The notes: generated by a model from the sequence alone, not told the origin. A DNA stretch of 64,000 nucleotides from an uncultured archaeon (GCA_964342815.1 CAYFHS010000004.1:104333-168332), one strand, 5' to 3'. Shown: positions 17,341 to 46,188, counted from the first letter of the stretch. Numbers and translations: made by a program.

Positions 17341-17490
17341 TCAGAGGAATCGACCCCCTACGGATCTCGATTTCGCGAACATTGTCACAACTGGAAGCTT
17401 CAACACCCGGAGTAAACCTGTGGGTTTACGAGGGTGAAGTGAATTTACTAATTCACGACTCATTTTGTCGAGCTTCGCATTTATAACAAT
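17341..17490 (+). mobile_element. Structured non-coding repeat, family C long copy (150 bp), flanked by AT on both sides
   Basis: Shares 5' and 3' blocks with 24750-24840. Hairpins: GGAATCGA/TCGATTTC, CACCC..GTAAACC-TGTG-GGTTTAC..GGGTG, GTGAATT-TACT-AATTCAC, closed by GAAGCT/AGCTTC. Confidence 0.7.
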
Positions 17491-17545
17491 ATTCTACCTA
17501 TCAATGGATTTAATATTAAATAAATGTTATGTATTAAGCAAAATA

Positions 17546-17559
17546 GCGGTTATAACCGC
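17546..17559. promoter_or_regulatory. Perfect 14-bp palindrome, possible operator
   Basis: GCGGTTATAACCGC between divergent genes, about 165 bp upstream of the ATG at 17723. Confidence 0.3.
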
Positions 17560-17722
17560 CGTTTTCATACATGGGGGTTCGTATTATACGTCCATGTGGT
17601 AAAAAATCTCCGGTCTATTTCATTTTAATCGTGTATATTTCTCTTTAAAAAAGATAGATGAGTAAATTGCTATATACAAGCACAAATTATAAGAAACAAA
17701 TATTTAGACATGTGGTGGTTTG

Positions 17723-44300: not shown

Positions 44301-46033
44301 TTGCAAATGAGTTTGTGACTGAATATAAAATATATTACAGCAGATTCTCTTTTAGCACAGTTGAAGACTATTCGAGCAATGAAATAATGCTTGTGGCAAC
44401 AGAAAACTCCAATTCTACCGAATATGTTCGCTTAGTCAAAAACCTAGTGGCAAATCAGAATTATTATTTTGCAGTAACACCGGTAAACCAACATGGTGAG
44501 AATCTTAGGGTTGCATCGGCGGTTGTTAAGCCAACGAAGCTCACAGAGGCCAAGGTTGATGCCAATTTTAATGGATCCTATACGGCAACTTGGAAAAAGT
44601 GTCCTGAGGAACTACGTCCTCGTTTCGATCATTATGCAATTTACGTCGCCACAGGTACCCCTGACGTGAATAACGATTCCCAGGTGGCAGTTAGAATATT
44701 TGATATATTGACTACTTCATACATAATAAGGGGTTTGAAACCCGATGAGAAGTATGAGATACTTATTCGGTACATGGGTAAGGATGGGGCGGAATTATAT
44801 AGGGAAACGGGCAGTATCAAAGTAGAGGGTGCCGTTGAGGAAACTGGGCTTCTTGGCTTTTTTATGGAATACTGGGAACTTGTAGGTGGTGCAATCACTA
44901 TCCTTGCTGCGCTGTTCGGTTTCTTTGCGTTCCAACGGAAAAAGAAAAAAGTGAAAGAATACAGAAAAGAGATAACCGATACCTATATGGCCAATCGGAA
45001 AGAGCCCGCGGTTTGCGTCAAGAAGTTGAAAGATATAAGACAGCGCCTCGAGGAGGAAGTTCACGAGGAAAGGATGACTGAAAATCAATATCTTATCATC
45101 AGGGAGAAATTGAAGGATTATATGGCGGAGATGAAGGAAAAGAACCGGAAGCTGAAGAAGAAGGAAATGAAAAGGAAGATGAAAGAGAAGCAGAAAGCCC
45201 TGGTCGTCGTCGAAAAGATGGAATTGGATGAGGAGAAAGAAAAGAAACCAAAAAAGCAAGCAGTGGTGGATTCCGGAAAAGACTATCATGCCGTATTGGG
45301 TGTTGCCAGCGATGCCACCGAGAAAGAGATCCGGGCTGCATTCAAGATGTTAGCGGAAAAATATCACCCCGACAAGGTTAGGCATTTGGGCAAGGAAATT
45401 ATCGACGTTGCCGCCAGGAACATGAGGGAGCTGAACGAGGCCAGGGACACGCTTCTGGAGAGATTGAAGGAAGGACCTGAACCGGGGGAGAAAGCTGGGG
45501 ATGACGAGGCAAAATTGTCCGCCAAAGAGGAAGCGGAGAGCCTTCCCGTAACGGAAATAATTGACGAGGATCGAATGCTGGGTCAGGGCGATGGAGCTGC
45601 TGAAAGTGAATCGCCGGATGAAGAAAAAGCGGATGAAGGGACGGAGAAGACCGAGGTAGGGGAGGAAGCCGGAGAAGAGGTTAAGGAACCTGCAGCAAGC
45701 GGGGAGACCTTAGAAGCTGAACCGGCCGAGCCGATTGCCGTTGATGCCGACGACCTTCCTGAAACTGATGATGGGGAGGATGGATCGGAATCGGATGATG
45801 AGCCTTCCCCGGCCTCAGATGATGAACCTGATGAAAAACCGATTGATACGGAGGATGCAACCACCACGGAAGAACCTGGTGAAGATGCTGATGAATTATT
45901 CGCATCCCTGGACGATGATCTTCCCCCTCCTGAGGACCATGGAACCGAAAGTTCAGAGGAAGATGCCAAGGATGACCTCGAAGACGACATTGACGAGCTT
46001 ATAAAGATGTCTGACGATGTGTTCGATGACTAA
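38393..46033 (+). CDS. Giant surface protein (2546 aa): right-handed beta-helix repeats, PKD/Ig/Fn3-like domains, TM helix, cytoplasmic J-domain and acidic tail
   Basis: Repeated SPY...LTIEPGVIVKF...IVFTS units; AGQDQTV...TYTFTLVV; several ITP..A Ig repeats; TM LVGGAITILAALFGFFAF followed by RKKKK; J-domain DYHAVLGV...YHPDKV...ELNEA. Confidence 0.88.
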   Translation: MEMDVKIGNNNHATAKRLTSLLTIWLFVSTGLLGLLLLADEDIVASAAGPTYITSNPYYAAPVTWSEANSPYVLNSSVTIKDGAKLTIEPGVIVKINGNHQIYVGSGSTHRANLWAVGTSTKRIVFTSYHDDTEGGDTNGNGGDTAPAKGQWSRIYFDYIDNINLNRIEHCNIKYANEGIRFEDGSVTVTQCNISYNNYGIRAYGTGVSPTISNCNITNNTNGIYLEFTSAGTSLQSNLIRDNNYGLVCSIVPTVNGNTIVNNSVWSGGESRFIPYNVCLKGDVYAGNTWYSSLSPYIVIGDVTIRDTYLVEIQAGTTLKFDRSDYELHIDGKLTAVGTPNSWITFTSNRANPAKGDWDKLNFNPINANYDDHNKLQYCRIEYASYGVYLYYSSPALIDHNEIENNTYGIRLEGNSNPQTVTYNNFTKNTYPVDCCAHIPALGTNNFTANTFNNVTIGGYAKVSCTWPESESPYIIRDSVYVMDNAKLTIEPGVIVKFDSYKRIQVGTGSTHRGDIWAEGTAGKRIVFTSNKDDSAGGDTNGDGGLTSPAKSNWEFIYYYYVSNNANNKWEYCDFKYSNYGLNFYEGEIAVSRCNFSYNTRGINAQRSASKPTISNCNISNNTYGIYLDGTSALTELNSNLISDNNYGLVCNIVPLVNGNTILNNSLWSGGEGRAVPYNVCLKGDVYADNTWYSSLSPYIVIATVNIRTPYRVTIQAGTALKFDHSSYQLKVDGKLTAVGTASKRITFTSNRQNPSKGDWNRIFFEPDDPGNYDPFNKLQYCRIEFASYGIFCTHSSPAVLDNNEIENNTYGIRLEGRSNPTITNSNITYNTYSVDCSAHIPSLVTDNISHNSYNNITVGGYIYDNVIWPESGSPYIVRDNIYIVDTNKLTIDPGVTIKFDSYKRIQVGTGSTHRGDLYAVGTKAKRIIFTSNRDDTEGGDTNNDGQATAPAKGNWEYIFFYYLQTVIFNKLEYCTIKYANYGVYLDDNDNGVTVSHCIIEENHRGIHLQSGAKGNVEYNEFHNNGYGMYFAGSRSGANVHNNDIYGNTNHGIYVQSPDNVSADNNYWGSANGPTHANNPGGNGDKSSNYVDYKPFANYYINNDPPVSKAGQDQTVVWGRNATLDGKGSYDQEECPNGDAAGNKLVYDWNVSANYPSNQIVLNNESSPTPHFTLVMNVSGTYTFTLVVRDPGGKWSSESTVNVHSSPPDVPTELWITQRDLVITADETSRFTAGANDSAGNRNYTWMREWEITDPDAQLAVSGQYNETAVFHPHKAGIWTIRCNYSGGVVNGGRTVTKQITVRFGEVKSIIIETFQNMVNVSADNENLRITATGYDLKGNVNNTWISTWSVNDTDARLGPDPNDPANGQKRVFIPGNVGQWMITCELKEFGFTIVTANIKLNVSHGVVDHIDVTPKDQITTAGSTIQYSAVVYDQKNNSIPSNPTWSTDDPKGNISSGLYGAGQNGTWNIVCTVDQISGSTSVTVNKGPLTGVEITTETATVHANETLQFSARGYDVKDNPILISFTWAVTDPEAQISQQSGLFTPKNVGTFKVFANYTDQKTRADWSAEATIRVLLGRVYSLEITTQDNLKAITVEQKLQLYAKAYDVKGNEYGAGDWTPTWQVDDPDGSVSSTGLFTPGPSSIGIWTITCTDTATNIFNTTSVGVNFGQLSNIVISPSGATVAADKTLQLTATGYDTMNNSQDITHEVAWYVPNGTIENGLFSPYAVGEYTIYANRSGRSGHVTVMVNYGKLVRIIITPDNPSVDVLDTEPLKLKGTGYDIKNNLIINNWNWSISKGTIDPTGAEVTYTPKAPGKWIAMCSYGSIRANITIDVTNTITISHNVTSTAATGGKVVISAVIVGYLDVMPTLYYKYHEEDIYQATSMFNPEGDNYLGDIPGLIDPGSIFYYIVASDGYNTAVTHPEKTPVERPNIIEVTESAVGAVPTPVQFWAWDFGIGDTVKIIWIPSLANEFVTEYKIYYSRFSFSTVEDYSSNEIMLVATENSNSTEYVRLVKNLVANQNYYFAVTPVNQHGENLRVASAVVKPTKLTEAKVDANFNGSYTATWKKCPEELRPRFDHYAIYVATGTPDVNNDSQVAVRIFDILTTSYIIRGLKPDEKYEILIRYMGKDGAELYRETGSIKVEGAVEETGLLGFFMEYWELVGGAITILAALFGFFAFQRKKKKVKEYRKEITDTYMANRKEPAVCVKKLKDIRQRLEEEVHEERMTENQYLIIREKLKDYMAEMKEKNRKLKKKEMKRKMKEKQKALVVVEKMELDEEKEKKPKKQAVVDSGKDYHAVLGVASDATEKEIRAAFKMLAEKYHPDKVRHLGKEIIDVAARNMRELNEARDTLLERLKEGPEPGEKAGDDEAKLSAKEEAESLPVTEIIDEDRMLGQGDGAAESESPDEEKADEGTEKTEVGEEAGEEVKEPAASGETLEAEPAEPIAVDADDLPETDDGEDGSESDDEPSPASDDEPDEKPIDTEDATTTEEPGEDADELFASLDDDLPPPEDHGTESSEEDAKDDLEDDIDELIKMSDDVFDD

Positions 46034-46061
46034 AAAAATGCTGCTGAACTGAGCTTTACGT

Positions 46062-46188
46062 GTAAAGCCGACCCATTCTGGCACATCTTACTTGAGAAGC
46101 CAAGATCTATGGGCTTGGCTGAACAAGTAATAGGGCCCGGTACGGGACACCTTTACCAAGAAGACAGTCACTTTGTTCCCGTCTTTAC
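46062..46188 (-). repeat. Family A element, copy 2 (127 bp), with an extra internal hairpin
   Basis: Same 38-bp and 21-bp blocks as 24533-24595. Middle contains TTACTTG..GCCAAG/CTTGGC..CAAGTAA. Confidence 0.85.

Follow-up and report, generated by a model that had tools for sequence, protein, structure and literature searches.

The DNA analysed here (the window) is a 64,000-nt stretch of contig C4 (C4:104333-168332) in a 4.35-Mb metagenome bin of a marine Thermoplasmatota archaeon (G000; 116 contigs, 89% complete, 45% GC), and it holds a toxin-antitoxin (TA) island in and around which lie seven short non-coding elements: two each of families A, B and C, and a seventh element that stands by itself (Table 1). 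A first-pass annotation, made from the sequence alone, had described these elements as self-complementary and modular with conserved ends, and the description held well. All seven were located in the window sequence and, when folded as single-stranded DNA and compared to 200 shuffles, six of them folded better than every shuffle or almost every one (z -2.5 to -5.6: A1 -4.0, A2 -3.8, C1 -4.7, C2 -5.6, the seventh element -3.1 and the first 134 nt of B1 -2.5), the exception being B2 (-1.4). For comparison we used a same-genus genome (G001; ~83% nucleotide identity to G000), one contig of which is collinear with the window at ~75-86% nucleotide identity, and a genome of a sister genus (G003). A same-genus relative of the window's archaeon carries the label 'Thermoplasmatota archaeon ETNP2_MAG_1'.

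The two family A elements have ends of 38 nt and 21 nt in common at 100% identity. A2 follows the stop codon of a 2546-aa gene, is itself followed by another GTAAAG (46053-46059, - strand) and has seven near-full copies on other contigs (93-99% identity), and the module that adjoins A1 is also found after A units on other contigs. B1 and B2 share a left end of 31 nt (94% identity) and the terminal stem TTCCCCCTG...CAGGGGGAA, their ends reading TTCCCCCTGCGT... and ...CAGGGGGAA; within B1 lie the modules GTAG-hairpin-CGA and CCTCG-hairpin-CTGCGG, and the third of the three family B copies in G000 lies on contig C39. C1 and C2 have the ends TCAGNGGAATCG... and ...GACAAT in common. The left hairpin of C1 is GGAATCGA..TCGATTTC, and its long right stem holds nested modules, among them GGAG-hairpin-CGA and a GTGAAT..ATTCAC hairpin. 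The seventh element is made of the hairpin GTTGCAT..ATGCAAC followed by CCTCGG-AATCC..GGATT-CCTACGG, and its CCTCGG-hairpin-CCTACGG motif recurs both in B1 and in modules that are nested within copies of C, a sharing that the first-pass annotation had rightly noticed. This motif occurs 31 times in G000, versus 2 in a reversed-sequence control, and the internal module CCC-GTAG-hairpin-CGA-GGG 25 times versus 12.

Table 1. Elements, island genes and reference sites, in window coordinates except for the last row.
Feature	Position	Strand	Description
C1	17341-17490	+	150-nt family C element; AT flanks 17339-17340 and 17491-17492
Toxin-antitoxin island	23164-28771		between pyrG (21416-23071) and a metallophosphoesterase gene (28031-28771, -)
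MNT	23164-23730		island gene (Pfam)
HEPN	23727-24185		island gene (Pfam)
DUF7557-like antitoxin	24339-24536		island gene (Pfam)
A1	24533-24597	+	one 65-nt family A unit: GTAAAG-hairpin-CTTGGTAAAG...GGCTTTAC-GA; nhmmer E 1.5e-18
GTAAAG-superfamily module adjoining A1	24598-24650	+	GTAAAGACACACC...GACAAGTGGTGACTTGTC; repeated k-mer region 24529-24650
RelE/ParE	24618-25013		island gene (Pfam)
C2	24750-24840	+	canonical 91-nt family C element in the RelE/ParE-like gene; AT flanks 24748-24749 and 24841-24842
HicB/HicA	25202-25608		island genes (Pfam)
Two open reading frames			unassigned; island
B1	26858-27044	+	187 nt; closing stem TTCCCCCTG...CAGGGGGGAA; upstream of hicB2
HicB/HicA	27222-27678		island genes (Pfam)
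B2	27723-27786	+	short form of B (64 nt), a little downstream of hicA2
Seventh element	27840-27933	+	two-hairpin module in a GCCCAC...GTGGGC closing stem
A2	46060-46188	-	family A unit; ~64-nt two-hairpin block nested in second hairpin
Empty target site	53444-53445	+	single AT in CATTAG^AT^GTAAGG; G001 has a 150-nt family C copy here
IS200-type element, 752 nt	G001 contig C158:38946-39697; G003 contig C1		boundaries from aligning both genomes' copies

The elements of the window belong to a large repeat population. A k-mer based census of G000 found 669 repeat regions of at least 30 nt, which together occupy 53.9 kb or 1.2% of the genome (longest 641 nt), and 189 of them are joined by common modules into one network that includes families A and C. 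Ends are shared within A, B and C, but A and C are parts of one mosaic network and not separate closed families. The 65-nt unit of family A gave 73 profile matches at 48 loci on more than 30 contigs, often in head-to-tail arrays of 2-4 units, and the position of 15 of the 48 loci at contig ends suggests that the repeats break the assembly there. We considered a CRISPR array as the source of the 65-nt period and rejected it, as the whole unit repeats and variable spacers are absent. Inverted repeat pairs bracketing a gene numbered only three, all of them family A units 4.5-6 kb apart. Complete copies of family C number about 37 in G000 and range from 52 to 455 nt. Family A is present in G000 and in the sister genus and was not found in G001, G002 or 37 other relatives, while a search for the C core in one genome each for ~185,000 species returned only two Thermoplasmatota bins and one contig of a 'Candidatus Omnitrophota' bin (JABMSC010000134.1, 4.1 kb). 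We do not take the latter as spread across phyla but as a mis-binned contig, 84-88% identical over 1.7 kb to the archaeal genus.

To compare the two congeneric genomes, 1.34 Mb of G001 was taken, of which 1.22 Mb was alignable, and indels of at least 40 nt were counted by chaining. Of the 175 indels found, 31 were precise small insertions. Family C accounted for 12 (4 in G000, 8 in G001), the CCTCGG/CCTACGG type for 6 and the GTAAAG...CTTTAC type for 4, leaving 9 others. Within the aligned regions, 4 copies of family C are common to both genomes, 8 are found in G000 only and 17 in G001 only. C1 is a case in point: G001 lacks it and has, at the orthologous site, GTTATTCGACC with only one AT, compared to GTTAT, the element (TCAGAGG...ACAAT) and then ATTCTACC in the window; the reverse case, a site empty in the window and filled in G001, is listed in Table 1. 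These data demonstrate that family C and the GTAAAG...CTTTAC group, at least, are mobile, with precise empty sites in both directions, as the first-pass annotation had proposed to look for in close relatives.

Fixation at orthologous positions with no empty alleles, which that annotation had named as speaking against mobile elements, was found for B1 and B2 and not for family C or the GTAAAG...CTTTAC type. B1 and B2 bracket hicBA at orthologous places in G000 and G001, and no empty allele was seen; the G001 B-type element upstream of hicB has a compensated terminal stem (TTCTCACCTG...CAGGTGAGAA, versus TTCCCCCTG/CAGGGGGAA in G000), and the left end of B2 is conserved at the orthologous G001 site. 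The B elements are thus conserved structures fixed in both species rather than demonstrated movers. Contigs of four other marine metagenomes matched window positions 17000-28200 only as short low-depth pieces, too thin for use; some of these match without a difference over the junctions of C1 and C2, and one contig (88% likeness) skips 17227-17489 and is probably a relative's. A separate difference between the two genomes lies at the A2 site, where window positions 46029-46184 hold only A2 and the matching segment of G001 (contig C67:42065-43709) holds 1.6 kb with a glutamine-synthetase-like gene (GPEFEFFLF motif); it is either a deletion in G000 or an insertion in G001, and one breakpoint is at a TTTAC.

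The filled and empty sites define the ends of the elements. Family C has no terminal inverted repeat: its ends are TCAGCGGAATCG... and ...CCATTGACAAT, with a hairpin adjoining each of them (GCGGAATCG...CGATTCCGC at one end and the long stem CATTGTCAA...TTGACAATG at the other); the left end reads TCAGCGG... and the right end ...TTGACAAT. Every convincing C copy has the form AT^TCAGCGG...GACAAT^AT (carets mark junctions or insertion points), and a single AT stands in each of about ten empty sites. One AT in empty and two in filled sites fit an insertion at a 2-nt target without duplication and a 2-bp duplication alike. No tandem C-C junction was found among the 154 loci examined, 1.34 Mb of G001 included. 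In family A the terminal inversion is limited to the 6-nt GTAAAG/CTTTAC. Two clean empty sites, AAAC^GTAAAT and TCCA^GGCAAT, show that the whole unit, from GTAAAG to CTTTACAC, was inserted with zero bases duplicated. Across loci the flanks of family A are biased to GNNAA on the right, which on the other strand is a TTNNC target with an element end CTTTAC, and to YTTNNCAN on the left. By these motifs the target is like the junction of two A units, and this explains the tandem A arrays; on the other strand the pattern amounts to insertion after a TTTAC-like pentamer. The left dinucleotide of A units varies and the right one is nearly always AC.

The stems themselves are conserved by compensatory changes. 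In family C, 6 copies have AU and 14 have GC at pair 8/37, while at pair 10/35 there are 19 with AU and 3 with UA; in family A, pair 7/27 is AU in 7 copies and UA in 17. The mismatches in C stems are strand-asymmetric, with 36 A.C versus 6 G.U in the orientation shown, and it is therefore the complementary strand that is kept foldable.

As for the modular look of the elements, C copies shared by the two genomes and set in near-identical flanks differ in length by an extra ~64-nt two-hairpin module that lies within a hairpin in one genome and is built like the seventh element (for example, G000 C16:8783-8938 versus G001 C12:205-296). Modularity is therefore the trace of elements inserted into elements. 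The most extreme nesting seen is a G001 copy of family C (L117:1909-2626) that extends over 718 nt and has nested hairpin modules alone between intact C ends.

The island in which several of these elements lie holds 4 repeat regions per 6 kb, compared to a genome mean of 0.83, and to this extent the claim that the elements concentrate there stood; yet 4% of all 6-kb windows equal that density, placing the island only in the top 4-5%, and the enrichment is modest and was seen after the fact. The further proposal of a special tie to TA genes, or of a part in TA-cassette assembly, was not supported on the same count and as the elements are genome-wide, and they have no demonstrated role in toxin-antitoxin biology. 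G001 lacks the segment corresponding to window positions 23070-25620 and keeps hicBA and the flanking B-type elements.

One element does interrupt relE in frame, as had been claimed. C2 together with one AT makes up 93 nt (24750-24842) that lie in frame and free of stops within the ORF (open reading frame) at 24618-25013, and without these 93 nt there remains a 100-aa RelE/ParE-like protein that can be aligned to a paralog free of gaps (40% over 85 aa, E 1e-14). We estimate the chance that a 31-codon insert is both in frame and open at roughly one in ten and, given that the host gene encodes a toxin, a special mechanism is unnecessary; the copy probably persists through insertion in a tolerant loop or through a harmless loss of the toxin gene. 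Matches to RelE plus the element in G001 were rejected, being intergenic C copies with chance extensions. At the 5' end of relE, the called ATG (24618) falls within the repeat module at 24598-24650, and so the original start was more likely a TTG nearer 24640. The antitoxin-like ORF upstream (24339-24536) takes its TAA stop from the first GTAAAG of A1 and has no ATG, GTG or TTG near its 5' end. Insertion of repeats has reshaped the ends of both genes, the antitoxin-like ORF and relE. Repeats of this kind make false start and stop codons, as in these two gene calls, and can pass for regulatory RNAs or cassette sites.

That no transposase or integrase is encoded in the window was confirmed for the profile families searched, with zero matches to Y1, TnpB, serine or tyrosine recombinases, IS110, IS630, IS4/5 and rve. 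The partners that the first-pass annotation had suggested seeking elsewhere in the genome (Y1/RAYT, IS110 or a tyrosine recombinase) did not emerge either: there was no Y1 gene, the only IS110 match looked like a contaminant, and the four tyrosine recombinase genes of G000 all lie outside the window's contig and are unlinked to the repeats. The IS110 match lies on a 1579-nt contig of 63% GC, compared to 45% for the genome, and was set aside as probable contamination; a match of the IS4/5 type, on contig C105, is a PIF/Harbinger-like, eukaryote-looking transposase, and an rve match lies on a contig of 55% GC. Contigs C105, C110 and C114 (1.5-1.7 kb; Harbinger-like, IS110 and rve) are probable bin contamination. 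The serine recombinases, two genes on contigs C76 and C40, were rejected as partners, having the build of resolvases/invertases and not that of IS607, with no repeats nearby.

The sister genomes do encode Y1 enzymes (4 matches in G001 and 1 in G003). One of the elements concerned is a 752-nt element of the IS200 type (IS, insertion sequence) that consists, after a left flank ...TTTAC, of a left-end hairpin 19 nt in, a gene for a 163-aa transposase (HUH and Tyr motifs), a right-end hairpin and ...TAGTTTAC; its 3' end, ...GGTAGTTTAC, ends in TTTAC, and TTTAC is also its target. It is multicopy in G001, where it lies at at least 8 contig ends. A second Y1 element of G001 has a 154-nt derivative, made up of its left end plus its right end, that is a G001-only insertion. 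Y1 elements with TTTAC ends, together with short derivatives, are therefore active in this lineage.

How, then, do the elements move? It is observed that they insert into intergenic DNA, sometimes into genes (relE) and into each other's hairpins, and that family A piles up head to tail in 65-nt arrays. We put it at about an even chance that they are genome-wide non-autonomous hairpin DNA elements of ~50-450 nt that move as folded single-stranded DNA by the route of IS200/IS605-type Y1 transposases. Such movement would follow the peel-and-paste route of Y1 (HUH) enzymes, as for the PATE and REP/REPIN repeats discussed below: the enzyme would recognise a subterminal hairpin, cut after a short motif at the 3' end of the element and paste the cut strand into the target behind an identical or similar motif, which on this model would be AT for family C and a TTTAC-like pentamer on the complementary strand for family A. 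A true target duplication would then be absent, and every inserted copy would remake the target at its own end. The earlier suggestion of non-autonomous elements mobilised via folded single-stranded DNA or RNA thus keeps the HUH-type single strand as its best fit, with no enzyme found in G000.

A number of findings weigh against this Y1 route. The G000 assembly gave zero matches to PF01797 (Y1) and to TnpB, and neither tblastn with the G001 transposase nor blastn with the sister IS200-type element left a trace in it, contig ends included; despite this Y1-less assembly, A2-type copies are 93-99% identical to one another. The hairpins of A and C are unlike the end hairpins of the two relatives' IS200-type elements, with which, on our reading, they have in common only a CAAGAA heptamer before the hairpin and TTTAC; ends matching those of a Y1-bearing IS belong only to the 154-nt G001 insertion, which derives from the second of these elements. 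The TTTAC-type IS occurs in G001 without family A, and family A in G000 without such an IS, and of 7 metagenomic loci with a gene related to that of the G001 Y1 transposase, 0 had the family A motif. A gene-sized element with C-type ends was not found in the sequence searched, the only long one being the 718-nt module stack of G001. Finally, the 2-nt target AT is below the 4-5 nt usual for IS200/IS605 elements, and AT...AT would equally be left by a 2-bp duplication or a recombinase crossover, while the left-flank bias of family A (YTTNNCAN^) is superfluous for simple recognition of a 5' target.

Young, near-identical copies and species-specific insertions, side by side with the lack of any credible native transposase gene, also raise the thought that the mover is no recognised transposase at all, and is instead a host DNA-processing enzyme or an unnamed nuclease family that recognises the internal-loop motifs. 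We hold this to be unlikely; if true, the elements would be archaeal mobile DNA of a new class, served by a new enzyme. That they are elements like MITEs (short for miniature inverted-repeat transposable elements), with a cut-and-paste DDE transposase as their mover, or else a recombinase whose crossover falls at a 2-bp core, seems to us decidedly unlikely. The AT of family C would then be the duplication or the crossover, consistent with its single AT in empty and two in filled sites, and the ends of A and B would be terminal inverted repeats, in keeping with the 6-10 nt of inverted termini in A (GTAAAG/CTTTAC) and B (TTCCCCCTG/CAGGGGGAA). The A junction, CTTTAC-NN-GTAAAG, does resemble a crossover site that is palindromic around a centre of 2 nt, and G000 has two serine and four tyrosine recombinase genes. 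However, terminal inverted repeats are lacking in C, nothing is duplicated at the clean empty sites of A, and the variable left and nearly constant right dinucleotide of A units does not fit a shared crossover core. On the side of the enzymes, an IS630/Tc1-type gene was sought in G000 with zero found, the IS4/5, rve and IS110 matches are on the contaminant-like contigs of 1.5-1.7 kb, the serine recombinases have a resolvase/invertase build, and there is no linkage between any of these genes and the repeats. We rejected membership of the MITEs proper, as C lacks inverted termini, A lacks duplication at clean sites and no resident native IS was found.

Structured RNA would explain the compensated stems by other means: the elements could be RNA genes or cis-acting parts (transcript-end stabilisers, terminators or protein-binding small RNAs), with presence and absence reflecting gain and loss of functional RNA modules. 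The retention of internal loops (CCUCGG/CCUACGG, GUAG/CGA), the strand asymmetry of mismatches and the excess of family A between convergent genes (10 of 27 loci, versus ~4 expected) fit this explanation. Orientation relative to neighbouring genes is random, though, with 7 copies along the gene direction and 7 against it in tandem intergenic regions, for family A and likewise for family C, which argues against a transcript-bound function. Precise insertions with defined ends occur at non-homologous sites, coding sequence and other elements included, and Rfam 15 gave zero matches over the window at gathering score and zero at E up to 1 over 17000-28500. We consider an RNA explanation improbable, and an RNA role would in any case be compatible with DNA mobility. 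Least probable of all, and by our estimate very remote, is that the B elements are attC-like sites delimiting a hicBA cassette, and the TA island an integron-like array without its integrase. B1 and B2 are imperfect palindromes that flank a small TA cassette in the same orientation, also in G001; each can pair its two ends, and the content of the island differs by whole TA pairs between G000 and G001. Their ends, however, by reading of the B sequences, lack the R''/R' core sites (RYYYAAC/GTTRRRY), and the conserved R/L core sites, adjacent integrase and cassette array of attC systems are absent, the window having no integrase and the four tyrosine recombinase genes being on other contigs. The family has three copies only, B2 folds no better than shuffles, and B sits at orthologous places in both species with no empty allele seen, so the likeness to attC was not upheld.

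Compared to what has been described, the elements are PATE/SMR-like and REP-like repeats in marine Thermoplasmatota, unusually small and deeply nested, and not a new system tied to TA genes; to call them an undescribed system, as the first-pass annotation did, was too strong, as the PATEs and SMRs of Haloquadratum (PMC3119063) and the REP, BIME and REPIN repeats of bacteria are already known. In Haloquadratum walsbyi (Dyall-Smith et al. 2011, PMC3119063), the PATEs lack inverted terminal repeats, carry near-terminal palindromes, cause no target duplication and reach 177-194 copies; SMRs of ~110 bp insert into PATE palindromes, and strain-specific insertions occur although in one strain the IS200-type genes are all disrupted or pseudogenes (PMC3119063). 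The present elements are likewise archaeal, too short for a transposase gene and present in hundreds of copies, have near-terminal palindromes without inverted terminal repeats (family C) and no target duplication (family A, clean sites), and show species-specific insertions with contiguous empty sites, small repeats nested in the palindromes of other elements, and insertions where IS200-type genes are missing or broken. They differ in phylum and sequence, in having smaller units (~64-95 nt) and deeper nesting, up to 718 nt, and in the head-to-tail tandem arrays of family A. Moreover, the ends of PATEs match IS605-type elements of the same genome, whereas those of A and C match no IS that we found.

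The REP/BIME/REPIN repeats of Proteobacteria, which are associated with RAYT (TnpA-REP) Y1 enzymes, include 'double-foot' forms and in-frame insertions, and the RAYT classes are known mainly from bacteria (PMC3116915, PMC3733652, PMC6006769). Like them, the present elements are short hairpin repeats that make up ~1% of the genome, are mostly intergenic and form mosaic clusters, with a conserved tetranucleotide at the hairpin foot, 'double-foot' forms that carry a tag at both ends, occasional in-frame gene insertions and a supposed movement as single-stranded DNA. Unlike REPs, family A has the tag GTAA(AG) before the stem instead of GT[AG]G, and the ends of C and B have no tag, GTAG...CGA being confined to some of the internal modules; A arrays are direct and not inverted doublets, and G000 has neither a repeat-flanked single-copy RAYT nor a Y1 gene. 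IS200/IS605 elements of the IS608 type insert 3' of a 4-5-nt target such as TTAC, have subterminal hairpins and make no duplication (PMC6006769). The present elements resemble them in their asymmetric hairpin ends, in the lack of a true duplication and in that the left flank and the 3' end of the element carry the same short motif; they differ in carrying no gene, in their hairpins, which are not those of the relatives' IS, in the target of family C, which is just AT, and in that no cognate transposase was found in G000. Rickettsia palindromic elements, for their part, enter protein genes in frame (cited in PMC3733652), and C2 resembles them as a small palindromic repeat in frame within a coding sequence; yet it is one clear in-gene copy among ~37 C copies, and lies in a toxin gene, whose inactivation carries little cost, and a systematic preference for coding regions is not suggested.

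Much is known of small hairpin repeats without a transposase from a few bacteria (REP/REPIN) and from one haloarchaeon (PATE/SMR), and we found no description for the Thermoplasmatota, abundant marine archaea known almost solely from metagenome bins. Here, two congeneric genomes yielded dozens of clean pairs of filled and empty sites, by which the ends, target motifs and nesting are defined to the base, and the Y1 enzymes of the sister genomes, together with oligonucleotides, make the chemistry of transposition testable.

The window holds two further repeats apart from these families. At 21225-21273 is a short repeat (AAAAAGCGGCCCAAAA... twice) that belongs to a separate 15-member repeat cluster in G000, and the 2546-aa ORF just upstream of A2 (38393-46033) has internal repeats with a period of 1206 nt, in three copies that are 63-70% identical.

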